Part shown: positions 1-10,707 of the stretch, in pieces | How positions within the stretch are numbered: the first letter of the stretch is position 1 | Layout: every line of letters starts with the position of its first letter | DNA from: Deltaproteobacteria bacterium | GTDB lineage: Bacteria; Myxococcota; Kuafuiibacteriia; Kuafuiibacteriales; Kuafuiibacteriaceae | Direction of reading: 5' to 3' | Length of the DNA: 64,000 nucleotides | Assembly: GCA_040218735.1 (NCBI GenBank) | Contig: JAVJQW010000019.1 | Location: 288,001-352,000 of the forward strand | Program-made: the position numbers and the translations under genes | Notes under the pieces: model-generated | Told to the model about the DNA's origin: nothing | The model's input: only the letters and a program-made list of their open reading frames with translations | Database searches by the model: none

Positions 1-786
1 GGCGAGCACCTCGGTCGCGCGAACGGGGCGACGCGACGGGTCCGCGCTCCCGAGCCGCTGCAGGAGCGCGCGGAAGTTGTCGGGGAGCCGATCGAACCCC
101 GGCGCGAGGGCGATGAGTGTGTGTCCGAGTCGCCAGAGGTCACCGAGCTTCGTGGGGGCGGCGGCCGGGATCTCTTCGGGGGCGAGGCGGGCGCAGGGCA
201 TCTCGGTCGCGAGGTGGTGCGGCGCGATGGAGACTGGGACGCCGACGATCTCGGCCCCGTCGGCGTGGACGATGACGGTGTGCTCGGAGAGCAGCGGCTC
301 GAAGCCGCCGAGGATGTGGCGCGTTGCGAGCCGCGTGCAAAGGGCGACCGCGATCCGCAGCAGGTGCGTCGTGTCCTCGACGTACATGCCGGGCGCGCTC
401 AGCCGGTCGACGTCGGTGCGCCACGGCATCGCCCAGAACAGGACGCGCGACCCGTCTTCGCGGTCGGCGCCGCCGTGCGCGAGGATCGGGATCTCGTTGT
501 CGACGAACAGCGCGGCGGTGGCCTTCGCGACGCGCGCCTCCTCGCGCGGATCGATCGCGTCCGCGAGGTGCGCGAGCTGCAGCAGCACCGCCTCCCCGTT
601 GGGCCCGCGCGCCTCCACGAGCCAGGCGCCCGGCGCGCGGACGACGCCGCGCAGCACGTCGTAGGGTCCGACGCGGAACAGCGCCTGGACGCCGTTGTCG
701 ATGATGCGGACGGGGTTGCGGTGACCGAGCAGCTCGCTGCGGTCGATGAGGCGCGTGATGATGCGCGATTCACTTCGGCCCGTCAT
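1..786 (-). CDS. Ser/Thr kinase-like protein, probably a pseudokinase; 3' end runs off the window
   Basis: Not in the ORF track; translated by hand from ATG 786 (GTG 789): MTGRSESRIITRLID...RLAPEEIPAAAPTKLGDLWRLGHTLIAL...DPSRRPVRATEVLA. This shows kinase subdomain VIII (APE), IX (DLWxLG) and XI (DPxxRP) motifs but no HRD, DFG or VAIK. Confidence 0.65.
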   Translation of the reverse strand, partial: MTGRSESRIITRLIDRSELLGHRNPVRIIDNGVQALFRVGPYDVLRGVVRAPGAWLVEARGPNGEAVLLQLAHLADAIDPREEARVAKATAALFVDNEIPILAHGGADREDGSRVLFWAMPWRTDVDRLSAPGMYVEDTTHLLRIAVALCTRLATRHILGGFEPLLSEHTVIVHADGAEIVGVPVSIAPHHLATEMPCARLAPEEIPAAAPTKLGDLWRLGHTLIALAPGFDRLPDNFRALLQRLGSADPSRRPVRATEVLA

Positions 787-884
787 CACCTGCCGTAGGA
801 CGCTCGCCGCGCCGGGATCGTCCCCCGGCTCGGACGATCGCCCGACCCCCATCTTATCGTACCAGGACGCTGACGAAGTCAGCC

Positions 885-1058
885 GTCCCCCTTGAACTTG
901 AACTTGCCCTTTCCCTTGCCCTCGATGGGAGAGGGTTCCTGGCGACTCGACATGATCCAGGGCTATCGCGCGTCCTTGCCCTGGTTCACGGCGGTCCGGC
1001 AGGAATCGCCGACGTGCTCGAGGGCAAGGAGAAGGGCAAGTTCAAGTTCAAGGGGCAC
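885..1058. repeat. ~170-bp long inverted-repeat (hairpin) element, MITE/REP-like
   Basis: 888-925 CCCCTTGAACTTGAACTTGCCCTTTCCCTTGCCCTCGA is the reverse complement of 1018-1055 with 2 mismatches. The interior also pairs (TTCCTG/CAGGAA; CCAGGGC/GCCCTGG). Confidence 0.85.
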
Positions 1059-1069
1059 GTGTGACTGCG

Positions 1070-1807
1070 TCACCGTGCGCGCAACAAATAGGTCCTCGCC
1101 CGCCGCGCCGCGGCCTCCGACCACGCGCGGAACCTCACCACCAGGCGGGTCGGATCCGTCGGGTCGATCGTCACCGTCACGGCGCGGGACCCGTCGCGGT
1201 AGGGGCAGAGCTGGGCGCTCCGCTCGGCCTGGGCGACGTCCTCCGGCTTGGCCGGGTGCTCCAGGTGGAGCGTGTACTCCACCGGGTAGGCGCGCTCGGG
1301 GGACGAGACCTTGAAGGTCTGGCCGTCGAGGGTCGCGACCGGGACGTGGACGCGTTCGCCGTCGTCGGTGCGGAGGATGAGCTGGAAGAGGCCGATGCGC
1401 TCGACGATCCCGACGCACGTGTCCAGCTCGAGCCGGGCGCCGATGCCCAGGCGGCTCGTCAGCACCTGCGCCAGGCCCACGCCCCACGCGCGCGCGCGGA
1501 GGCCGAAGGTGAACACCATCGAGGCGCCGCCGAGGACGAGCACGAACGTCACGAGGAGCGGCGCGCCTCGGTAGAAGTAACGGACGATCAGCGACACCGC
1601 GCCGCCCAGCGCGAAGAGGTTCACGGCGGGGAGCAGCAGCGGGTTGTTGGTCAGCGCCCGCGTGCGGACCTGGAGCGCCTTCTTCAGCATCGCGGCGACG
1701 AACCAGACGCCGGCGAGCAGGACGAGCAGGACGAGGCCGTCGACCCCGAACAGGATGCGCAGGAGGCTCTCGGCCTCGGCGTCGATGCGCGACAGCAGCA
1801 GGTCCAT
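1070..1807 (-). CDS. MscS-family mechanosensitive channel-like protein (245 aa)
   Basis: About 3-4 TM helices followed by an MscS beta-domain-like segment (GARLELDTCVGIVERIGLFQLILRTDDGERVHVP). The ATG overlaps the upstream stop at 1807. Confidence 0.7.
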   Translation of the reverse strand: MDLLLSRIDAEAESLLRILFGVDGLVLLVLLAGVWFVAAMLKKALQVRTRALTNNPLLLPAVNLFALGGAVSLIVRYFYRGAPLLVTFVLVLGGASMVFTFGLRARAWGVGLAQVLTSRLGIGARLELDTCVGIVERIGLFQLILRTDDGERVHVPVATLDGQTFKVSSPERAYPVEYTLHLEHPAKPEDVAQAERSAQLCPYRDGSRAVTVTIDPTDPTRLVVRFRAWSEAAARRARTYLLRAR

Positions 1808-4800
1808 CAGCTCACCACGCCCTGACGCTCGAGCACCGTCGAGACCTGCTTGGACATGTGCGCGGGGATCGCGACCCGCCCGCCGCGGCGCATGCGCAAC
1901 ACGAGCCCGGCGTCTTCGAGGGGCAGGAGCGCACCGCCGGCTTCGTCGGGCGGGACGCCGAGCACCTCGGCGACCTCCACCTGCGACAGCGGACCGAAGC
2001 GCACGAGCAGGCCGAGCACCGCGAGCGCGTCCACGGGGATCTGCTCGCCGAACGGGATCGACGTCTGCGACGGCGGCTCGAGCAGCAGCGTGGTGTCGCC
2101 GTTCACCTTGATGCTCCGGACGTGCGCGAGGAGCGCCGCGCGGAGGTTGCCGCCCGAGACGCGGGTGACGGCGCGGTAGTAGTCGTCGGCGGCCTTCTGC
2201 GGGCGCCAGGCACGACCGAGGAAGCGTCGCTGCTCGTGCTCGGCGGTGAAGCCGGAGAGGCTCGTCCGGGCTTCGAGGACCTCGCGGACCTCCTGCACGG
2301 ACAGCGGTGCGAGTGTGAAGCGACGACCGAACGCGGCGGACAGCGGCGCCATCTCCTCGAGCAGCGCGAGCGCGGACGTGGACGTCGACGCGACCCAGTG
2401 TGTGAACGCGCTGGTCGACATGACCGTCTGCAAGAACCTCGAGAGGTCGTCGAGGCCCGCGGCGGTCGGGAGGACGTAGTGCTCGATGTCGTCGATCAGA
2501 ATGATCGTCGTCTTGCGACGGAGCGCGACGGAGATGGATCGCGGATCGGGGTTGGTGCGCAGCTCGCGGGCGATGGCGCGGACGAGGCCGCCGCGCCGCG
2601 AGTGGAAGCGCGGGTCGATGCGGAGCACGCGGTGTCGCGCGAGGCGGAGCTCGAGCGCGTTGACGACCGAGGTGCGGCCGCTGCCGTGGTCACCGATGAC
2701 GAGCACGTTGGCGAACTGCTCGGTGCGCCCGGGTTGGATCGACTTGATGAGCTGCTCGAGCTGCGGCTTGTAGGCGACCGCGAGGCGGAGGTCTTCGATC
2801 GGCTCGAGGCTGAAGACCTTCTGGTGGATCGGCGGCAGCGACAGCGCCGCGGGGTCCGGGACGAAGCGGTCCAGGTACTGCCGCATCTGGCTCGCGTCGA
2901 GGCGGCGCTGGCCCGAGCGGATCAGCCAGTCGCGCACCTGTCGCCCGCGGACGATCGCGATCGCGGCGTTGGCGACGCGGCGGCGGGCGCGCTGGAGCGA
3001 GCGACGCACGCGGTCGACGGCGTCGGCGACGGTGCGGCGCGTCGGCTGCCGGCCGCGGGGGCGCGGCGGGGTCCCGTCGCTGGTGACGAGGGCTTCGAGG
3101 TCGTGGCAGGTCTCCTCGGCGAGGGTGTCGAGCTCCTTCGACGCGACCTCCTGCGCCTCGGTGAGCTCGCGGACGTACTGGTCGAGGCGGTCGCGGCTGC
3201 GGGTGGTGGACTCTTTGACGATCGCGCGCCACGTGACGTCGTCGGTGGTCTTGCCGGCGTCGTTGCCCGCGTTGTCGAGGCCGAAGCTCGCGGCGCCCAT
3301 CGCTTCGTCGAGGCGGGTCTCGCCCTGCACGACGATGTCCGAGACGTCGCGTACGACGTCGAGCATCTGCGGCGCGAAGGACTCGATGAGGAGGCCCTCG
3401 ATGCGGTTCGCCACGGAGGACTTGCGGATCTCGATCTTCCGCACGTCCGGGATCGTGTCGGGTTCGATCAGCTCCAGCGACTTCGGCGCGAGCTCCACGA
3501 GCTCCGAGAGCTCGGCGAGCAGGTCGGACGCCTGCGTCGCGTGGCGGTACTTGTCGCGAAGCCCGGTGAAGCGGTTGCGCTCGCGTTTGGGGTACAGCTC
3601 CTCCGCGGCCGCTTCGATCTCCGCGCGCGGCGCGGGTTCGTCGCCCTCCAACGATTCGAGGAGGACCTCGAGGCGGCTCTTGAGCGTGGCGGCGATCGGG
3701 AGGAGGTCCGTCTCGACCACGTCGAGCGGGACACGCACGCGCTTCTTCACGATCGCGACGAACGCGTCGCGCACGCGCTCGACGGCGGCGGCGGCGCGCA
3801 GGGTGTCGTAGGCGGCGTCGACGACTTCACGCCAGCGCGCGGCGTCGCCCTCCAGGCGTTCGAGCGCGGCGCGTCCGATCGGTTCGACCGCGGAGAGGCG
3901 CAGCGCGGACGCCGGAACGCCGGGGCTGCCGACGAGTCCGTAGGCGTCGATCGTCGCGTGCATCCCGCGGTCCACGGCGTCGATGAGATCGCGCCGAACG
4001 TCGTCGAGGAACGCGGCGGTGATCAGGTCGATCGCCTGCCGGCACTCGTCCGCGGTGATCGCGCCGATCACGTGCTGGCGCGCTTGCCACACCAGCTTCA
4101 GCTGCGTCGCGAACCACTTCTCGCGTGCGTCGAGGAGCGCTTCGCACAGCCGCGCTTCGATCGCGATGCGTGCGATCATGCGCGTGGGGACGGTGCGCGT
4201 TCGGCCGGCGAGCGCGGGGAAGTTGCGGCGCCACCAGCGGGCGACGCGCGTTCGTCGTCGATCCTGTGGTCGGCGGATCAGGAGCGCCGCCGACATGGGG
4301 ACGGTGACGGCGGTGTCGACGGCACCGAGCGCCGTCTGCAGATCTTCGACGACCGCGAGCAGCTCCTTCTCGAGACCTTCGGCGACGTCGTCCAGGTCCT
4401 GCTCGAGCGCCTCCGCGACGTGCACGGGCGCGCCGGACTTGGACGCGCCCGGTTCGACGAACAGGCGGATGCTTGCCTTGCGGCCCCGGTCGGCGAGGGG
4501 CTGCAGCTGCTCTTCGATCAGCGCTTCGAAGCGGCCGCGGAGGGTGTCGTCGAGCCGATGAACGATCTCCACCAGCTCCGGTGCGTCGAGGCGTGACGGG
4601 TCGGGGCGGTCCGTCGGAACGGGCGCGGGGGCGTCGGACTCGGGCGCGGCCTCCGGCGCCTCTTCCTCCTCGCGGGACCCCACCTCGCCGGCGCGTTTGA
4701 ACGCCAACCCCATGAGCACGGGGCCGATGACCAAGTTGATCGCGACGAGCGCGAGCCCCGTGCGGTGCAAGGGATCTTGCAACACCGGGAGCGCCTTCTC

Positions 4801-5958
4801 CGCGAGTAACACGAGGCCGAGCGTCACGCCGGCTTGGGGTGTGAACGCCATCCACGCGTTCACACCGACCGCGCGATCCTCGTTCCCGATCCGCGCGCCG
4901 AGGAAGCCGGCGATCACAAACGCGAGGATGCGCGCGACGGTCAGCGCGAGCGCGAGCGGGAGGATCTTGTAGGTCCCGAAGAGGTCGACGCCGGCGCCCG
5001 CCGTCGTGAAGAACACGACGAACACCGGCAGCGACACCTTCACCAACGGCTCGAGCAGCTCGTGCTCGAACTTGGAGAAGTTACGGACCACGAAGCCAGC
5101 GGTGATGAACACCAACAGCAGCTCGGCGTGGAGGTAAGCGATCGCCTCCGCCGACAGCAGCACGCAGACGACGATCGCGAGCAGCATGTCGCGGTGTACG
5201 AAGCGCAGGTACAGGATCAGGATGACGCCGAGCGCTCCGCCGAAGACGAGGGAGACGCCGATCTCGCGCGCGAGGAGCAGGAACGACGCCGCGCTCATCG
5301 TCGCGCCGGGTTCCACGAGCGTGCGAACGATCGCGATGCTCACCGCGAGCGCGAGCACGACGACGAGGTCCTTCACCACGGAGATCGCGAGCGTGATGTC
5401 CGAGAGGCGCCCCTTCGCGCCGGACTCGTTGATCACCGCGAGCGCGATGGCGGGGGAGGTGCCGATGCCGAGCACCGCGACGATCACCGCGAGCCCGATG
5501 ACCATGTTGCCGTCCTCGACGCCGAGGAACGGGAAGAAGGTCTCGACGCCGTAGAACGTCCCGCCGACCAGCAACAGCAGCAGCGGGATCTTGAGCGCGA
5601 CCATCGCGGACAACGTGCGCCCGACCTTCTTGATCGCTTTGATGTCCAGCTCGAGGCCGGCGGTGGTGGCGATCAGCCCGAGCGCGAGGGTGTTGAACAC
5701 GCGCATGTCGCCGACGATCGTCGTGGTGAGGATCTGCGAGACCTGCGGCCCGAGCAGGATGCCGCTGGCGATGTAACCGGTGATCCGCGGCAGCTTGATC
5801 GCCGTCATCATCTCGCCGACGGTGAACGCCGCGAGCACGACGAACCCGATCGCCGCGAGTGTCATCGGGTCGGCCGCACCGCCGCCCGTCTCGGCGCGCA
5901 GCGCGGACAGCGCGGTCATCAGACCGAGCAGGCCGGCGAGGACGAGGATGCGGCGCAC
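1807..5958 (-). CDS. Cation:proton antiporter (CPA) fused to a long helical region and a C-terminal AAA/STAND-like P-loop NTPase with winged helix (1383 aa)
   Basis: The N-terminal ~425 aa has 12-13 TM helices with CPA motifs (LPRITGYIASGILLGP, GTSPAIALAVINE, PQAGVTLGL). The C-terminus has Walker A GDHGSGRT, Walker B IILIDDIE, SGGNLR and an HTH-like LSQVEVAEVLG...LEDAGLV. Confidence 0.8.
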   Translation of the reverse strand: MRRILVLAGLLGLMTALSALRAETGGGAADPMTLAAIGFVVLAAFTVGEMMTAIKLPRITGYIASGILLGPQVSQILTTTIVGDMRVFNTLALGLIATTAGLELDIKAIKKVGRTLSAMVALKIPLLLLLVGGTFYGVETFFPFLGVEDGNMVIGLAVIVAVLGIGTSPAIALAVINESGAKGRLSDITLAISVVKDLVVVLALAVSIAIVRTLVEPGATMSAASFLLLAREIGVSLVFGGALGVILILYLRFVHRDMLLAIVVCVLLSAEAIAYLHAELLLVFITAGFVVRNFSKFEHELLEPLVKVSLPVFVVFFTTAGAGVDLFGTYKILPLALALTVARILAFVIAGFLGARIGNEDRAVGVNAWMAFTPQAGVTLGLVLLAEKALPVLQDPLHRTGLALVAINLVIGPVLMGLAFKRAGEVGSREEEEAPEAAPESDAPAPVPTDRPDPSRLDAPELVEIVHRLDDTLRGRFEALIEEQLQPLADRGRKASIRLFVEPGASKSGAPVHVAEALEQDLDDVAEGLEKELLAVVEDLQTALGAVDTAVTVPMSAALLIRRPQDRRRTRVARWWRRNFPALAGRTRTVPTRMIARIAIEARLCEALLDAREKWFATQLKLVWQARQHVIGAITADECRQAIDLITAAFLDDVRRDLIDAVDRGMHATIDAYGLVGSPGVPASALRLSAVEPIGRAALERLEGDAARWREVVDAAYDTLRAAAAVERVRDAFVAIVKKRVRVPLDVVETDLLPIAATLKSRLEVLLESLEGDEPAPRAEIEAAAEELYPKRERNRFTGLRDKYRHATQASDLLAELSELVELAPKSLELIEPDTIPDVRKIEIRKSSVANRIEGLLIESFAPQMLDVVRDVSDIVVQGETRLDEAMGAASFGLDNAGNDAGKTTDDVTWRAIVKESTTRSRDRLDQYVRELTEAQEVASKELDTLAEETCHDLEALVTSDGTPPRPRGRQPTRRTVADAVDRVRRSLQRARRRVANAAIAIVRGRQVRDWLIRSGQRRLDASQMRQYLDRFVPDPAALSLPPIHQKVFSLEPIEDLRLAVAYKPQLEQLIKSIQPGRTEQFANVLVIGDHGSGRTSVVNALELRLARHRVLRIDPRFHSRRGGLVRAIARELRTNPDPRSISVALRRKTTIILIDDIEHYVLPTAAGLDDLSRFLQTVMSTSAFTHWVASTSTSALALLEEMAPLSAAFGRRFTLAPLSVQEVREVLEARTSLSGFTAEHEQRRFLGRAWRPQKAADDYYRAVTRVSGGNLRAALLAHVRSIKVNGDTTLLLEPPSQTSIPFGEQIPVDALAVLGLLVRFGPLSQVEVAEVLGVPPDEAGGALLPLEDAGLVLRMRRGGRVAIPAHMSKQVSTVLERQGVVS

Positions 5959-7191
5959 CTAGGAGACCTCCACCGGCAACGTCGGTCCCTCGGACTCGGG
6001 CGGGAGGCGATCGTGCTCGCCGGCGTCGACGAGGAACCGGCCGAGCGCCGCGCCGCTGGAGAGGTCCTGCACGACGAGCGCGGCGAGCACGGTGGTGAGG
6101 ACGATCGACGACTGCGCCGGGTACACCTGCGCGTAGCTCACCGCGATGGCGGCGCTGATTCCGCCCTGCGCCCACAGCGCGCTGCCGGCGCGGTGTACGC
6201 GGGGGAGGTCGTCGAAGAGATCGACCGCGATGTTCGCCGCGACGCGGAGGGTGAGGAGGCGAACCGCGACGTAGACGAGCGGCGCGAGCCACCACACGCC
6301 GAACACCGGGGACCACATCGCGCCGGCGAAGATCAGGACGGTCGTCACGGCGGGGCGTTCGAGCCGGGCGAGCTTCACGTGGAGCAGGCCGGAGTCCTTC
6401 GCGATCAGCGACACGACCACGCCGACGATCGCGTTGAGGAGCAACGGCGACATCCCGGCGGCCGAGGCCATGCCGCTCGCGAAGATGACGATGCCGACGG
6501 TCGCGAGGAAGAGGCGGTCGTCGCCCTCCTCGCGGTCCTTGCCCATGAACAGCGCGAACAGGACGCCGCAGGAGACGCCGAGGAGGATCAGCGCGACGAG
6601 CCATTCGGTCTGGGTGAGCGTGAAGCGGTTCGACGCTTGTGCGGATCTCGACAACGCGAGCGCGGTCCCGGAGATCGCGACGCCGAACACGGAGCCGGTC
6701 AGCGCGAAGCCGCGCAGCATGTCGGTCGCGTCGCCGCGCGCGCGGTGGAGGCGTACGCCGGACTCGACGGCCGCGGTGGAGATCGTCGCGGCCGCGCTGC
6801 CGATGGTGACGACGGGCCACAGGATCGGCTCCAGCGGCGAGGGATCGATCGGGAGGTAGAGCAGGCCGAAGTACAGGACCGCGCCGACGGTGCCGCCGAC
6901 GCCGAGCGCGATGACGAAGCCGCCGCCGAGGGCGGGGAGCGCGAGGAGCCGGCGTCGCAGCGCGAGACCGAGTGAGAAGCCGACGACGCCGAGGGTGAGC
7001 GAGACGAACGGTCGGATCGTGTCCATCACGTCCGTGTCGAGGAGGCGCAGGCCGAAGGGCCCCAGGAGCACGCCAATCACGACGTACCCCACCTCCGAGA
7101 CCCCGACTCGGGCCTTCGCGTAGCGGTTGAGCAACGCGCTCGCGAGGACCGCGAACACGACGACCAAGACGAGCGTGACGACGATCGGCAA
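5959..7191 (-). CDS. Cation:proton antiporter-like membrane protein (~410 aa)
   Basis: Probable TTG start at 7191 (LPIVVTLVLVVV...). It contains GYVVIGVLLGPFGL and about 12 TM helices, and its stop abuts the next gene's start. Confidence 0.75.
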   Translation of the reverse strand: MPIVVTLVLVVVFAVLASALLNRYAKARVGVSEVGYVVIGVLLGPFGLRLLDTDVMDTIRPFVSLTLGVVGFSLGLALRRRLLALPALGGGFVIALGVGGTVGAVLYFGLLYLPIDPSPLEPILWPVVTIGSAAATISTAAVESGVRLHRARGDATDMLRGFALTGSVFGVAISGTALALSRSAQASNRFTLTQTEWLVALILLGVSCGVLFALFMGKDREEGDDRLFLATVGIVIFASGMASAAGMSPLLLNAIVGVVVSLIAKDSGLLHVKLARLERPAVTTVLIFAGAMWSPVFGVWWLAPLVYVAVRLLTLRVAANIAVDLFDDLPRVHRAGSALWAQGGISAAIAVSYAQVYPAQSSIVLTTVLAALVVQDLSSGAALGRFLVDAGEHDRLPPESEGPTLPVEVS

Positions 7192-7287
7192 CGCGCGTCG
7201 ATCAAGGCGGCTTGCGAGGGCCGAGTCAAACAATTGGCGGTGGGTCGCTGTGTCGCCGGATGGGGGGTAGACTCGTCGCCGGTCGCG

Positions 7288-8358
7288 ATGGCTTCGATCG
7301 TGGTGGTGGATGGCGGGTCGTCGTTCGGGGCGGAGCTCGTCGGACGTTTGTTCGGCGCGGGCCGAGACGTCCTCGTGGCGCCGACGATCGACGTCGCGCT
7401 CGAACGTATCGCGCGGTTTCCTCCCGAGGTCGTCTTCGTCTTCCACGATCCGCCGGTGCAAGACGGCGCGGAGATCGCGCGGTCCGCGCGCGCGGCGGAC
7501 GATCACGTGTTGGTGATCGTCGGCGGGCAGTGCGCGCCTTTGGACCCGATACCGGGCGTGCAGGCGATGTTCTCTCCGGCGCTGTCCGCCACGAACGTCG
7601 CGCGGGCGATCATGGTCGCGGCGGACGAGCGGATGCGGAGCGAAGAGGCCGAGACGCCGCCGATCTTGCCCGACGAGCTGGTCGACACCTCCGACGACAT
7701 CACGCCGGTCGGCCAGGACGCGGTGCAGGTGCTCCGCGCCGCACTCGAGTCGTCGCAGGCTGCGCAGCAAGCGCTCGCCGGTACGCAGACGCCGTCGTTG
7801 ATCGCGGACGACGTCCCCGACGTCACGGTGCGCCCCCGCGCGGTGTCGACCGCCGGTGCGCCGCGTTGGACGCCGGGGCAGTTCGATCAGATCGCGGAGT
7901 CCGATCTGTTCATGGCGCCGTCGGCGTCACCGCTCGACGCGTCGTTCTTCCGCGACGTGCCCGCGGCCGACGAGCTCCCGTCGGTGCAAGACGCGCTGTG
8001 CGGTGCGCTCGTCTCGGAGATCGACGGCGCCGTCGCAGCGGGGCTCGTCGATCTCGACGCCGCGGCGCTCGTCGGCCAGCACTACCCCGACGACCTGACG
8101 CGCCAGGTGCTCGAGTCGATCGCGCCGATGGTCGTGGCGATGTTCAACGGTGAGGCGCTCGCGCGTTTCGAGGACGTCGTGCACGAGGAGGGCGCCGTGC
8201 AGTCGATCGTCGTGTCGACCGCGGTGACGCACCATGTGTTGCGCGGGATCGGCGAGCGCTTCGTGGTGGTGCTCGTCGTCCCGACGATGTTGGAGCTCGA
8301 CCGGGTACGCGAACGCCTCGAAGCGCTGCTGCCCGGCCTCCACGCGAACCTCAGCTGA
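7288..8358 (+). CDS. Degenerate receiver-like domain, acidic linker and C-terminal Roadblock/LC7-like domain protein
   Basis: The N-terminus MASIVVVDGG...ALERIARFPPEVVFV resembles a REC fold without canonical phospho-acceptor residues. The C-terminus (EIDGAVAAGLVDLD...VQSIVVSTAVTHHVLRGIGERFVVVLVV) matches a Roadblock pattern. Confidence 0.6.
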   Translation: MASIVVVDGGSSFGAELVGRLFGAGRDVLVAPTIDVALERIARFPPEVVFVFHDPPVQDGAEIARSARAADDHVLVIVGGQCAPLDPIPGVQAMFSPALSATNVARAIMVAADERMRSEEAETPPILPDELVDTSDDITPVGQDAVQVLRAALESSQAAQQALAGTQTPSLIADDVPDVTVRPRAVSTAGAPRWTPGQFDQIAESDLFMAPSASPLDASFFRDVPAADELPSVQDALCGALVSEIDGAVAAGLVDLDAAALVGQHYPDDLTRQVLESIAPMVVAMFNGEALARFEDVVHEEGAVQSIVVSTAVTHHVLRGIGERFVVVLVVPTMLELDRVRERLEALLPGLHANLS

Positions 8359-9415
8359 CGGCGCGCACCGCTTCGAGCCACCCCGTGCCGAAGCGATCGT
8401 CCGGCTCGAGGTAGTGCCCCTCCGACCACTCGTTGAGCGAGGCGACGAACACCCACGGGCTGCCGTAGTCCGCCGCGCGGGTGAGCGCCGCGCGGAAGTG
8501 GTCGGGGTGCTCGCCGACCACGACCGGCGACCACGGGTACTTGTCGGGGCGTTTGTCTCCGAAGTCCGCGCCGCGCGGTGAGGCGTCCCAGCCCGGCGCG
8601 ACGGAGGGCATGTACGGGAGCGTCCCTTCGCGGGCGAAGTGGTCCCAGCGCTCGGCGCTGATCCTCGCGCGCTCGGCGTAGTCCTGCAGGAACGGCCCGC
8701 GCCAGTCCGGGAGGAGCACGTAGTGCGTCACGCTGTCGAAGCCGACCTCGCGGACGTGAGGGAGCACGTCGTAGGCGGGATCGATCGCGGCGAAGTGCGG
8801 ATCGCCGACGCCGTTCGATCGGCACCACCGCCGCGCGCGCTCGATCGCGCGACGCGCGTCATCGAGGCCGAGCTCGTGCAGGAAGAACGTCGAGTCGAAG
8901 ATCGAAAAGTAAGGGCGCCCGTCGATCCGCAGGTAGTTGTCGCGCGCGAAGTAACGCTCGCCGACGTAAGCGATCAGCGCTTCGAAGTCGTCGACGTCCG
9001 TCTCGACGAGGCGGTCGTGTGCGATGACCGGGAGGTCCGAACGGCGCACCGGCAACACCCGACGCGGCATGCGGTTCGCCCACATCAACGCAAACGGTGT
9101 GTCGCGCCCGAGGGGCGATCCGAGGAAGCCGAGGTCGAGCCCGTCCTGGAACACCCGCTTCCCGCGACACCAGAAGAAGCCGTACACAAACGCATCCACG
9201 CCGTGATCCCGCGCGAGCGTGACGCGCGCGGCGAGCGCCTCCGGGTCGCGGTCGTCGTAGGGACCGAGCGCCGGGACCTTCGGCTGCGCGTGCCCCTCGA
9301 AGCGCGGGCGGCAGTCCCTCACGAGGTCCCACTCCGTGAAGCCCGGGTAGAACGATGCGTCGCGCTCCGGGATCGGGTGCCAGCCCGGGTAGACGTACGC
9401 AGCGATCCGAACCAT
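8351..9415 (-). CDS. WbsX-like / glycoside hydrolase family 99-like protein
   Basis: Motifs AAYVYPGWH...GFTEW...PRFEGHAQPKVPALGPYD...ARDHGVDAF, MWAN and SLNEWSEGHYLEPD are typical of the WbsX/GH99-like family. Confidence 0.85.
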   Translation of the reverse strand: MVRIAAYVYPGWHPIPERDASFYPGFTEWDLVRDCRPRFEGHAQPKVPALGPYDDRDPEALAARVTLARDHGVDAFVYGFFWCRGKRVFQDGLDLGFLGSPLGRDTPFALMWANRMPRRVLPVRRSDLPVIAHDRLVETDVDDFEALIAYVGERYFARDNYLRIDGRPYFSIFDSTFFLHELGLDDARRAIERARRWCRSNGVGDPHFAAIDPAYDVLPHVREVGFDSVTHYVLLPDWRGPFLQDYAERARISAERWDHFAREGTLPYMPSVAPGWDASPRGADFGDKRPDKYPWSPVVVGEHPDHFRAALTRAADYGSPWVFVASLNEWSEGHYLEPDDRFGTGWLEAVRAVS

Positions 9416-10707
9416 CAGAGCGTCAGGCGCCGGTTGGCGCCTTCCGTCGAGGACACCACGAGCTCGCAGACGAGGTCACCCTTCGAAACGCAGCGCGTCT
9501 CCTCCACCCGCCACGGCAGGCCGCCCTCGAGGAGCCGGTCGTAGAAGTCACCCGAGAGTGAAGGGCGACTCGTCCAGGGGACACGGTGGGCGAGCTGCAT
9601 CGTGGCGAGTGCCGCACCCTGCATGAAGTAACACGCGCCCTCCGTCGCCCGCCCTTCGCGGTGCACGTAGTAACAACTCTCGTAGGTCGCGGGGACGCGG
9701 AGCACGAGGCGCTGGTGCGGGACGATCTCCTCGATGCACCACCGACCGAGGCCCATCGCACGCCCGATCGCACACGCGCCGATCACGATCTCTTCGACTT
9801 CACCGCGGAGCGGACCGCCCTGCGTCTCCCACTGCGGGGACATCAGGATGTGGCCGAACGCGTTGAACGTGCCGACGTGCGCGGCCTCCCGGAGGAGCGC
9901 CTTCATCACGCGGACCGACTGCGGCGCGATGCGCGCGACGTGCCTCAACGCGTCGTACGCCGCGCGGTTGTAGTACGTCGCGGGGGTCAGCGCGAAGTAG
10001 AGCCCGAACGCACGCAGGCGACCGTCCGGATCCGCGAACAGCTTCGACGCGTGGTTTCTCAGGCGCTCCGCGAGCACCGCCACCGCGGTCTCGTCGACGC
10101 TCGAGATCGGCTCCAAACGTGTGCGCTCCACGTGCTCGCGGAGCACCGGGCGCATCAGCGGGGCCTGGTCCATCGGACGCAGCGCGAAGCGACAGTTCGG
10201 GACATCGAGGACGACGCAGGGCTCTTCGGTGGCGTCGACTGACTCCCGCGGGAGCCCGTGCACGACCTCCATCGCCGCGGCCGCGTAACCGGCGGTGACG
10301 GCGTCGGCGGGGCGGCGGCGGTACATCCTCTCGCCGTACTTCTCTCGCCAGCAGGTGCCGTGGTGCAGGTGGGTCCCTTCGGCGAGGCCGCTGTTGCCGC
10401 CGACGCCCATGCGGAGGGTGCCGTGACCGAGCGTGGCGAAGAGGGCTTCGGCGAGGGCGCGCTGCTCCTTCTCACCCTCGACCGCGAGGAGGTCGAGCAG
10501 CCGCGCGATGACGTCGTAGAACGCTTCGCGCGCGGCGCGCGTGCGGACGACGGCGCCGAGCTGGGCGCCGAGCGCGTCGTCGATCGTCTGGTCCCAGAAC
10601 AGGTTGAAGTGGTGGCAGTGGTAGACGATCGGGACGTCGGCCAGCAGCTCGAAGTCGTAGCCGCTGAGGGTGGTGCGGTGCTCGGCGATTCGCGCGAGGT
10701 CCGCCAT
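9415..10707 (-). CDS. Tandem V4R (4-vinyl reductase-like) domain protein (430 aa)
   Basis: Two halves each show a G-[HL]-G motif, then AGY/MQG, then E-x-x-C-x6-C-x-[FL] (EEPCVVLDVPNCRF; ETRCVSKGDLVCEL). There is also an N-terminal YHCHHFN motif. Confidence 0.75.
   Translation of the reverse strand: MADLARIAEHRTTLSGYDFELLADVPIVYHCHHFNLFWDQTIDDALGAQLGAVVRTRAAREAFYDVIARLLDLLAVEGEKEQRALAEALFATLGHGTLRMGVGGNSGLAEGTHLHHGTCWREKYGERMYRRRPADAVTAGYAAAAMEVVHGLPRESVDATEEPCVVLDVPNCRFALRPMDQAPLMRPVLREHVERTRLEPISSVDETAVAVLAERLRNHASKLFADPDGRLRAFGLYFALTPATYYNRAAYDALRHVARIAPQSVRVMKALLREAAHVGTFNAFGHILMSPQWETQGGPLRGEVEEIVIGACAIGRAMGLGRWCIEEIVPHQRLVLRVPATYESCYYVHREGRATEGACYFMQGAALATMQLAHRVPWTSRPSLSGDFYDRLLEGGLPWRVEETRCVSKGDLVCELVVSSTEGANRRLTL

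Follow-up and report, generated by a model that had tools for sequence, protein, structure and literature searches.

What would a bacterial antiporter do with an ATPase at the end of its chain, and why should the gene for such a protein be followed at once by that of a small mechanosensitive channel? The question is raised by three adjacent genes, here called A, B and C, in a contig from a Deltaproteobacteria bacterium of the phylum Myxococcota (assembly GCA_040218735.1, contig JAVJQW010000019.1). We analysed a window of 64,000 nucleotides of this contig, and all coordinates of these genes and their neighbours are positions in that window. Gene B encodes a cation/proton antiporter (CPA) domain fused to a long tail, gene A a diverged CPA paralog and gene C a predicted MscS-type channel. 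The reading that we prefer, with a probability of roughly 45%, is that the tail of B is a nucleotide-binding switch coordinating carrier and channel for ion or volume homeostasis. An earlier note on this DNA, made from the letters alone, had likewise proposed a transporter-channel complex gated by such a switch. The genes, all on the minus strand, are as follows.

1070-1807, minus strand: gene C, 245 aa, ATG start, MscS family
1807-5958, minus strand: gene B, 1383 aa, GTG start, fusion protein
5959-7191, minus strand: gene A, 410 aa, TTG start, multi-pass membrane protein, diverged CPA paralog

The three genes are packed without spacers. The TAG stop codon of gene A is directly followed by the GTG of gene B (0 bp apart), and the B/C junction reads TGATG, a 1-nt overlap in which the TGA of gene B gives its A to the ATG of gene C, so the junctions of 0 and 1 bp described in the earlier note are correct. 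The start of gene A is unsettled, since the gene sits within a longer open frame (5959-7770) and could begin at the TTG at 7191 or at an in-frame TTG at 7231, with no ATG available. A consensus scan gave no promoters, and two terminator-like sites against 2.1 expected. The order A-B-C was kept at five of seven related loci (G012, G013, G004, G006 and G008), as seen with tblastn and a hidden Markov model (HMM) of C, and at the remaining two (G001 and G016) the contig ends fall inside gene B. DNA flanking the operon was common only to a genome of the same genus, and therefore the A-B-C block stands out as the conserved unit. Since the arrangement recurs in related genomes and in an independently assembled contig, it is not a product of chance. 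We propose that A, B and C would constitute one operon with translational coupling, encoding a membrane assembly that acts in ion or osmotic (cell-volume) homeostasis.

Before any function is assigned to the tail of B, the fusion itself has to be accounted for, given that an assembly error, a frameshift or a dead gene could also produce such an open frame. Broken versions of gene B in two relatives point in that direction. The G004 ortholog is spread over at least five reading frames (L015, G004:C110, 6218-10513), and in G006 (L016, G006:C8, 5222-10829) the part encoding the ATPase and winged helix is out of frame with the part encoding the antiporter and helical region; these could be frameshifts, pseudogenes or, for G006, a true split form. 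Against this, both halves of B were matched co-linearly in 8 of 41 related genomes (its own included), all of the same family, and single open frames cover the full length of B in G012 (44% identity) and G013 (35%), the full-length orthologs together spanning 33-82% identity. A word-indexed search of proteins gave eight matches with lengths of 1382-1469 aa. One, at 99% identity, is labelled in its source as a cation:proton antiporter from a Deltaproteobacteria metagenome-assembled genome, and the other seven are 35-80% identical over the tail. Alignment of eight proteins showed motifs that are invariant along the whole of B. Finally, a 15,773-nt contig from a different study spans positions 1000-7300 in one piece with 93 substitutions, and its lone gap is a single base at 1052, outside the genes. 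With intact orthologs on one side and genes free of indels in the contig of another study on the other, an artefact is ruled out for practical purposes, and we give this explanation next to no weight.

In two runs from other studies (X2 and X3), contigs have one base fewer than the window at 1052, in the spacer downstream of C. Short joints and loose ends in the run contigs were considered as rearrangements and rejected, because their sides were of 20-22 letters and came from other metagenome contigs.

Within gene B we distinguish the following parts, the last of which reaches the end of the protein.

4669-5958, minus strand: residues 1-430, CPA antiporter domain with motifs GTSPA and K196-D197
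4594-4668, minus strand: residues 431-455, acidic, Pro-rich linker, predicted disordered (pLDDT <50, model residues 1-19)
2854-4593, minus strand: residues 456-1035, long helical bundle with two small beta hairpin pairs (modelled)
2062-2853, minus strand: residues 1036-1299, AAA+ ATPase core and lid (modelled)
2671-2694, minus strand: Walker A, GDHGSGRT, with Arg1095 where Lys is usual
2479-2505, minus strand: Walker B, IILIDDIEH, with D1156, D1157, E1159 and H1160, invariant in 8/8 sequences
1810-2061, minus strand: residues 1300-1383, C-terminal winged helix-turn-helix (modelled), protein end

The N-terminal domain would be a working-type carrier. Na_H_Exchanger (PF00999) matches residues 42-415 with an E value of 2.7e-17 (63.1 bits against a cut-off of 26.2) over profile positions 2-373 of 375, which places B in the CPA family. 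Residues T167, S168, P169, K196 and D197 were invariant in an alignment of 8 sequences, and the Asp of the K-D motif was kept in 8/8 B, tail-less B-type (B') and other CPA sequences aligned with MAFFT. This strict conservation suggests real transport. The Asp is presumably the ion-binding one of CPA carriers; no solved CPA protein aligned by sequence. In known groups of the superfamily the pair at this site would be N-D in CPA1, D-D in CPA2 and Q-D in Kef. If the mapping holds, B transports and A would be a non-transporting partner. Compared with PDB sequences, full-length B gave nothing at or below E 0.08 and residues 1-430 nothing at E≤5. The earlier note had stressed that CPA2 antiporters are usually regulated by RCK/KTN domains, and indeed there was no TrkA_N or TrkA_C (KTN/RCK) match in A, B or C (Pfam, E≤0.1). 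Another CPA protein of the same genome (C52:34715-36439, 575 aa) has I-D where B has K-D, and its C-terminal domain resembles by eye a PTS EIIA-type regulatory domain.

Gene A had been described as CPA-like, and this is borne out by hhalign, which aligned it to the antiporter part of B in 390 columns (probability 99.3%, E 4.9e-20). A itself matched nothing in Pfam, in NCBIfam or, by profile, in PDB. At the position of K196-D197 of B, A has G-S, and the Asp was absent from three of four A-type sequences (MAFFT). Lacking the Asp, A is a CPA homolog that is probably not an independent transporter. We propose that this degenerate paralog would most likely pair with B as the other protomer of a CPA heterodimer.

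Tandem pairs of CPA genes of ~400-445 aa were also found in relatives, consisting of an A-type gene and a tail-less B-type gene of 445 aa (L018 4343-6909, L020 3608-6135, and L019), each pair being followed by an open reading frame (ORF) of 409-487 aa without Pfam match. The A-type proteins of these short A-B' pairs are less diverged and match Na_H_Exchanger (E 5.9e-16 and 3.3e-12). Their tail-less B-type partners retain, like B, the GTSPA motif and the K-D pair. The existence of tail-less pairs suggests that the tandem pair came first and that B gained its tail afterwards.

The long helical region that follows the linker was predicted confidently when modelled alone (residues 455-1010, pLDDT 86.2, pTM 0.74) and consists of long helical hairpins. 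A Foldseek search against PDB gave no match at E≤0.001, the best being TolC with E 0.11. A fold was also sought with VIA-align and none was accepted, because it returned only generic or designed helical bundles with Z ≤13.8, in the unspecific range for helical models.

At the end of the tail, the Pfam families AAA_22 and AAA_16 match residues 1066-1178 below their cut-offs (25.3 versus 27 and 24.3 versus 32.6), and MarR_2 gives a weak match at residues 1308-1353 (E 0.027). An AlphaFold2 model of residues 430-1383, built with an alignment of 10 sequences, had a mean pLDDT of 79.8, and its top Foldseek matches in PDB were Cdc6/ORC1 and RuvB (E 1.6e-7 to 1e-5, probability 1.00, identity 14-19%), covering also the winged-helix domains of those proteins. 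These matches indicate that the P-loop NTPase and the winged helix are real, and the tail of B is accordingly modelled as having at its end an AAA+ core, followed by a lid and then by a winged helix. The fusion of an antiporter to a helical region, a P-loop NTPase and a winged helix, as put forward in the earlier note, thus agrees with both Pfam and the model. In the orthologs, a G-N-x-R motif is found in the lid and an F-G-R-R stretch after the AAA+ core; we presume that the latter corresponds to the arginine finger and the former to sensor 2 of Cdc6-type proteins.

The same note had assigned this layout to the STAND switches, and this membership was not supported. With STAND proteins (NLR, MalT, NACHT, NB-ARC) B shares a P-loop, a helical domain, a winged helix and a Walker B ending in D-D, and one plant TIR-NLR appeared at rank 23 of the Foldseek list. 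However, nothing follows the winged helix of B, so that the sensor repeats expected at the C-terminus (TPR, WD40 or LRR) are absent; the sensor-like parts are N-terminal and in the membrane, and neither NACHT nor NB-ARC matched B at E≤0.1.

The winged helix admits a different function for the whole assembly, that of a membrane-tethered signalling or transcription device in which the carrier and the MscS-like protein sense, the AAA+ part oligomerises and the winged helix binds DNA or a partner. The ArsR-type regulator NmtR was matched at the extreme C-terminus by a profile of orthologs (E 6.8e-4), and together with the MarR_2 match this gives the domain a similarity to ArsR/MarR regulators. The winged helices of the closest structural relatives, Cdc6/ORC1 and RuvB, have a role in DNA binding, and transporters are established as co-sensors of membrane-bound regulators, as LysP is for CadC. 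Nevertheless, the putative recognition helix of B is acidic rather than basic by eye, and the winged helix in AAA+ and STAND modules is often merely a structural third domain. There are no evident target genes and the flanks of the operon are not conserved, and a regulator would leave the strict pairing with MscS-like genes described below unexplained. We consider such a device unlikely, although it is the strongest of the competing explanations for this operon.

The identity of gene C as an MscS-like gene, also claimed earlier, was confirmed by profile comparison. Its product passes the Pfam cut-off for MS_channel_2nd narrowly (21.0 bits versus 20.2), and a profile of 6 orthologs of C matched 32 solved MscS-family sequences at E≤1, the best with E 3.9e-10 over positions 4-192. 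The layout is one of N-terminal membrane helices, a beta domain and a short C-terminal domain. By these matches C is an MscS-family protein and is predicted to be a small MscS-type channel. A complex prediction with B residues 1001-1383 and C gave scores of 0.19 and 0.00 where the mark was 0.32, a result that weighs neither way.

The pairing of the ATPase module with an MscS-like gene extends far beyond this locus. A family profile made from the last 400 residues of B (11 sequences) was compared with 1.84 billion cluster representatives and matched 8078 of them at E≤0.001, 4060 at E≤1e-10 and 2935 at E≤1e-30. Judged from these matches, the AAA+-winged-helix module is the core of a very large unnamed bacterial family. 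Among the best 150 the module was at the C-terminus in all but three (P0014, P0080 and P0153), and a crude hydropathy count on 146 of them gave mostly 3-8 membrane helices before the module, often with a long N-terminal stretch ahead of those helices in which no further membrane helices were predicted; the transporter fusions gave 11-14. Curated libraries do not name these proteins. Pfam gave generic P-loop matches only on 46 plain members (AAA_22 in 36, AAA_16 in 26), with no membrane-domain family and no MscS_TM or MscS_porin at E≤0.01, while NCBIfam yielded no meaningful match with A, B, C and 9 relatives as queries and PADLOC nothing that gives the family a name. RefSeq calls one member an 'ATP-binding protein'. 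Look-alike clusters in the Atlas are sets of 'hypothetical protein', commonest in Bacteroidota, Pseudomonadota and Myxococcota. A likeness of the N-terminal half of the plain members to the N-termini of MscK and MscM in the Atlas (0.82) was discarded because shuffled proteins reach the same score and Pfam was unsupportive in the 46 members.

In the genome of this bacterium itself (G000) there are four full-module proteins, each with an MscS-like ORF downstream on the same strand, three of them immediately and the fourth ~0.9 kb on. A scan of the phylum found an MscS-like match directly downstream at 28 of the 30 loci returned, two of which (G013 and G008) were in the training set of the HMM of C and, like their kin, are not independent. 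At one of the two exceptions an MscS-like gene is 1.2 kb further (L025), and at the other (L024) there is none in 12 kb. On a Caulobacter plasmid, and thus outside the phylum (L057, NZ_CP114872.1, 2942-7364), the gene of the 'ATP-binding protein' overlaps by 4 bp that of a 'mechanosensitive ion channel domain-containing protein'. The plasmid search returned 3 records with relative P0019 as query and no match with the tail of B as query.

A second MscS-domain gene follows in tandem on the Caulobacter plasmid. Two of the pairs in G000 are on one contig, at C33:72152-76221 (plus strand) and C33:147267-151549 (minus strand). In one of these two module proteins no membrane helices were predicted and Walker A is degenerate; the other begins with a hydrophobic segment, by eye a signal peptide, and continues with a long helix-rich region and several membrane helices up to the module.

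The transporter at the N-terminus is not always a CPA antiporter. Paralogs were found that bear the B-type tail behind an AA_permease and SLC12 domain. An HMM of the helical region recovered orthologs only, and it needed profile-profile comparison to detect this homology: hhalign aligned the tails of both kinds of fusion in 907 columns that begin with the helical region and run to the C-terminus (probability 100%, E 1e-43). In a tree of the module (FastTree, 154 sequences, midpoint root) the fusions are in one clade of 19 leaves with a support of 0.998, consisting of 11 CPA fusions, 4 SLC12 fusions and 4 forms without membrane helices. The module has been swapped between the CPA and SLC12 transporter classes. 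We suggest that in the fusion branch a plain membrane anchor would have been replaced by a secondary ion transporter of one or the other class. The idea, raised in the earlier note, that the pair of helical-NTPase and MscS-like protein is conserved with different transporter N-termini is therefore supported by the SLC12 fusions and by the gene found downstream at 28 of 30 loci.

The SLC12-type paralog of the same genome (C61:201198-208123, minus strand, 1768 aa) also has Arg in its Walker A. The ~0.9-kb gap that follows it could be filled by an additional gene, or the channel could be extended into it at its N-terminus. Against PDB sequences, a paralog from this genome gave chance-level rows only.

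How the module might work depends on its nucleotide site. The earlier note was right about the Arg in Walker A, which 9 of 10 orthologs share; the exception is the most distant one, from G013, where Lys takes its place and the Glu of D-D-x-E is missing too. The canonical GxxGxGK[ST] and hhhhDE patterns are not those of B, which has Arg in Walker A and D-D in Walker B. The site is, from its motifs, deviant, and this is no proof of inactivity. Across the family (n=154) the Walker A position is K in 126 members, R in 24 and another residue in 4, those with R including 10 of 11 CPA fusions and every SLC12 fusion listed. The Asp of Walker B is more constant (D in 143 and E in 10 of 154), but the position that follows it, normally catalytic, is occupied by D or E in no more than 72 of the 154. 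Given the Arg of Walker A and the variability behind the Walker B Asp, the module is more likely to be a switch that binds nucleotide and hydrolyses it slowly than a motor.

The motor has nevertheless to be weighed. The module would then act on the MscS-like heptamer or on the transporter dimer as an active motor or chaperone, assembling, inserting or remodelling it. Remodelling is the work of many AAA+ proteins, most of the family retains the Walker A Lys as counted above, and F-G-R-R and G-N-x-R would sit at the arginine finger and sensor 2 sites if our presumed mapping is right. On the other hand, fast hydrolysis would not be expected from the Arg of the fusion branch and from a catalytic position that is so little conserved, there is no signal of a clade that threads substrates by pore loops, and the best matches are initiator and clamp-loader-like switch ATPases. 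We see little chance that the module is a motor of this kind.

Our preferred reading, a switch shared by carrier and channel, is favoured because CPA and SLC12 carriers and MscS-like channels are all tied to one module whose ATP site looks suited to binding more than to rapid turnover. CPA/NHE exchangers, SLC12 cotransporters and MscS channels are osmotic or volume regulators. In the mechanism that we propose, B would be a working-type CPA cation/proton antiporter with a cytoplasmic tail made of the helical region and an Orc1/Cdc6-like AAA+-lid-winged-helix module, and this module would sense the state of the cytoplasm and set the activities of the MscS-like channel and the fused carrier jointly.

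Several points weigh against this proposal. We infer the physical contact among A, B and C, the gating and the physiological role. Nucleotide binding is deduced from motifs, and the Arg in Walker A would fit a dead site equally well. The similarity of the winged helix to the DNA-binding domains of ArsR/MarR proteins fits a transcriptional role as well. The osmotic theme is drawn by analogy from the known roles of the partner families, and one SLC12-fusion locus (L024/L032) has no MscS-like gene within reach. The distribution of the module is patchy, with 36 of 151 genomes of the phylum carrying it, which is atypical of core homeostasis genes.

The patchy distribution would also fit a defence system, and the earlier note had mentioned as an alternative a membrane-depolarising stress or defence role, in which the NTPase would sense infection and open the channel or the carriers so that the membrane potential collapses and the cell dies. 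An NTPase sensor with a membrane effector is a common defence layout, one member of the family is on a plasmid, and there were weak sub-threshold matches to nSTAND in 5 and to NACHT in 5 of the 46 relatives (and to NB-ARC in 1). However, all 19 other genomes of the bacterium's own family carry the module, with 1-4 matches each, and the strictly conserved CPA motifs suggest real transport. PADLOC (PADLOC-DB 2.0) gave noise-level matches only for B (mad8 with E 9.3e-4 and Csa3 with E 0.003) and nothing for A, C or 4 relatives. The neighbours with Pfam matches are not defence genes either: upstream of the operon, both on the minus strand, are a WbsX-type glycosyltransferase gene (8351-9415, E 1.2e-48) and a gene for a 430-aa protein with a weak V4R match (9415-10707). 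The defence alternative thus found no positive evidence, and we regard it as very unlikely.

The WbsX-type and V4R-match genes are not conserved beside the operon in other genera, and the other neighbours had no Pfam match. Downstream of C, an ORF of at least 284 aa (1-852, minus strand) has no Pfam match and is ~87% conserved in the same-genus genome only. A 912-aa open frame on the plus strand (1858-4596) runs antisense to B, with no evidence of being a gene; such frames are expected at the G+C content of the window, which is ~70%.

A broader proposal can be made for the whole family, namely that the membrane-anchored AAA+-winged-helix protein and its MscS-like partner constitute an unrecognised, widespread two-protein membrane machine. 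A nucleotide-dependent AAA+ assembly beneath the MscS-type channel would gate the release of ions or, alternatively, would convert membrane tension and ion flux to a signal in its conformation. In the fusions to CPA and SLC12 carriers, carrier and release valve would then be hard-wired to each other as a bacterial cell-volume regulator. We offer this proposal tentatively and think it less likely than not.

Each of these elements has known counterparts. KefC and KefB (CPA2 with KTN/RCK, and KefF or KefG) have in common with B a CPA domain with a nucleotide-binding regulatory tail and an operon partner; B differs by having no KTN/RCK (TrkA) domain, its tail being instead ~950 aa of helical bundle and AAA+-lid-winged helix, its operon partners a second CPA-like protein and an MscS-like channel, and its Asp motif K-D. 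The channels MscK, MscM, YnaI and bCNG share with C the membrane helices and beta domain of MscS, whereas the extra domains are here on a separate protein, encoded upstream and ending in an AAA+ ATPase. Orc1/Cdc6 and RuvB have the same order of AAA+ core, lid and winged helix as the module of B, but in B the module is membrane-anchored, has Arg in Walker A and lacks any replication or recombination context. Eukaryotic NHE (CPA1) and SLC12 (NKCC/KCC) proteins belong to the same two transporter superfamilies and each have a long cytoplasmic regulatory tail; here the tail is bacterial, AAA+-based, of the same kind on both carriers and tied to an MscS-like gene. The parts are therefore of known families. 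A prior account of the combination was not found: in the literature searched, which left subscription journals outside, there was no description of the pairing of the module with MscS or of its fusions to carriers.

MscS-type channels, together with CPA and SLC12 carriers, have a central place in osmotic and ion homeostasis, and they are known to be regulated by membrane tension, KTN/RCK domains, cyclic nucleotides and phosphorylation. From the family described here, it appears that MscS-like genes are tied in their thousands to a membrane-anchored AAA+ protein that the curated libraries leave unnamed. If the pair works together, a nucleotide-controlled layer would be added to the biology of mechanosensitive channels, and the natural fusions to carriers would offer a handle on how bacteria coordinate a carrier with a release valve.

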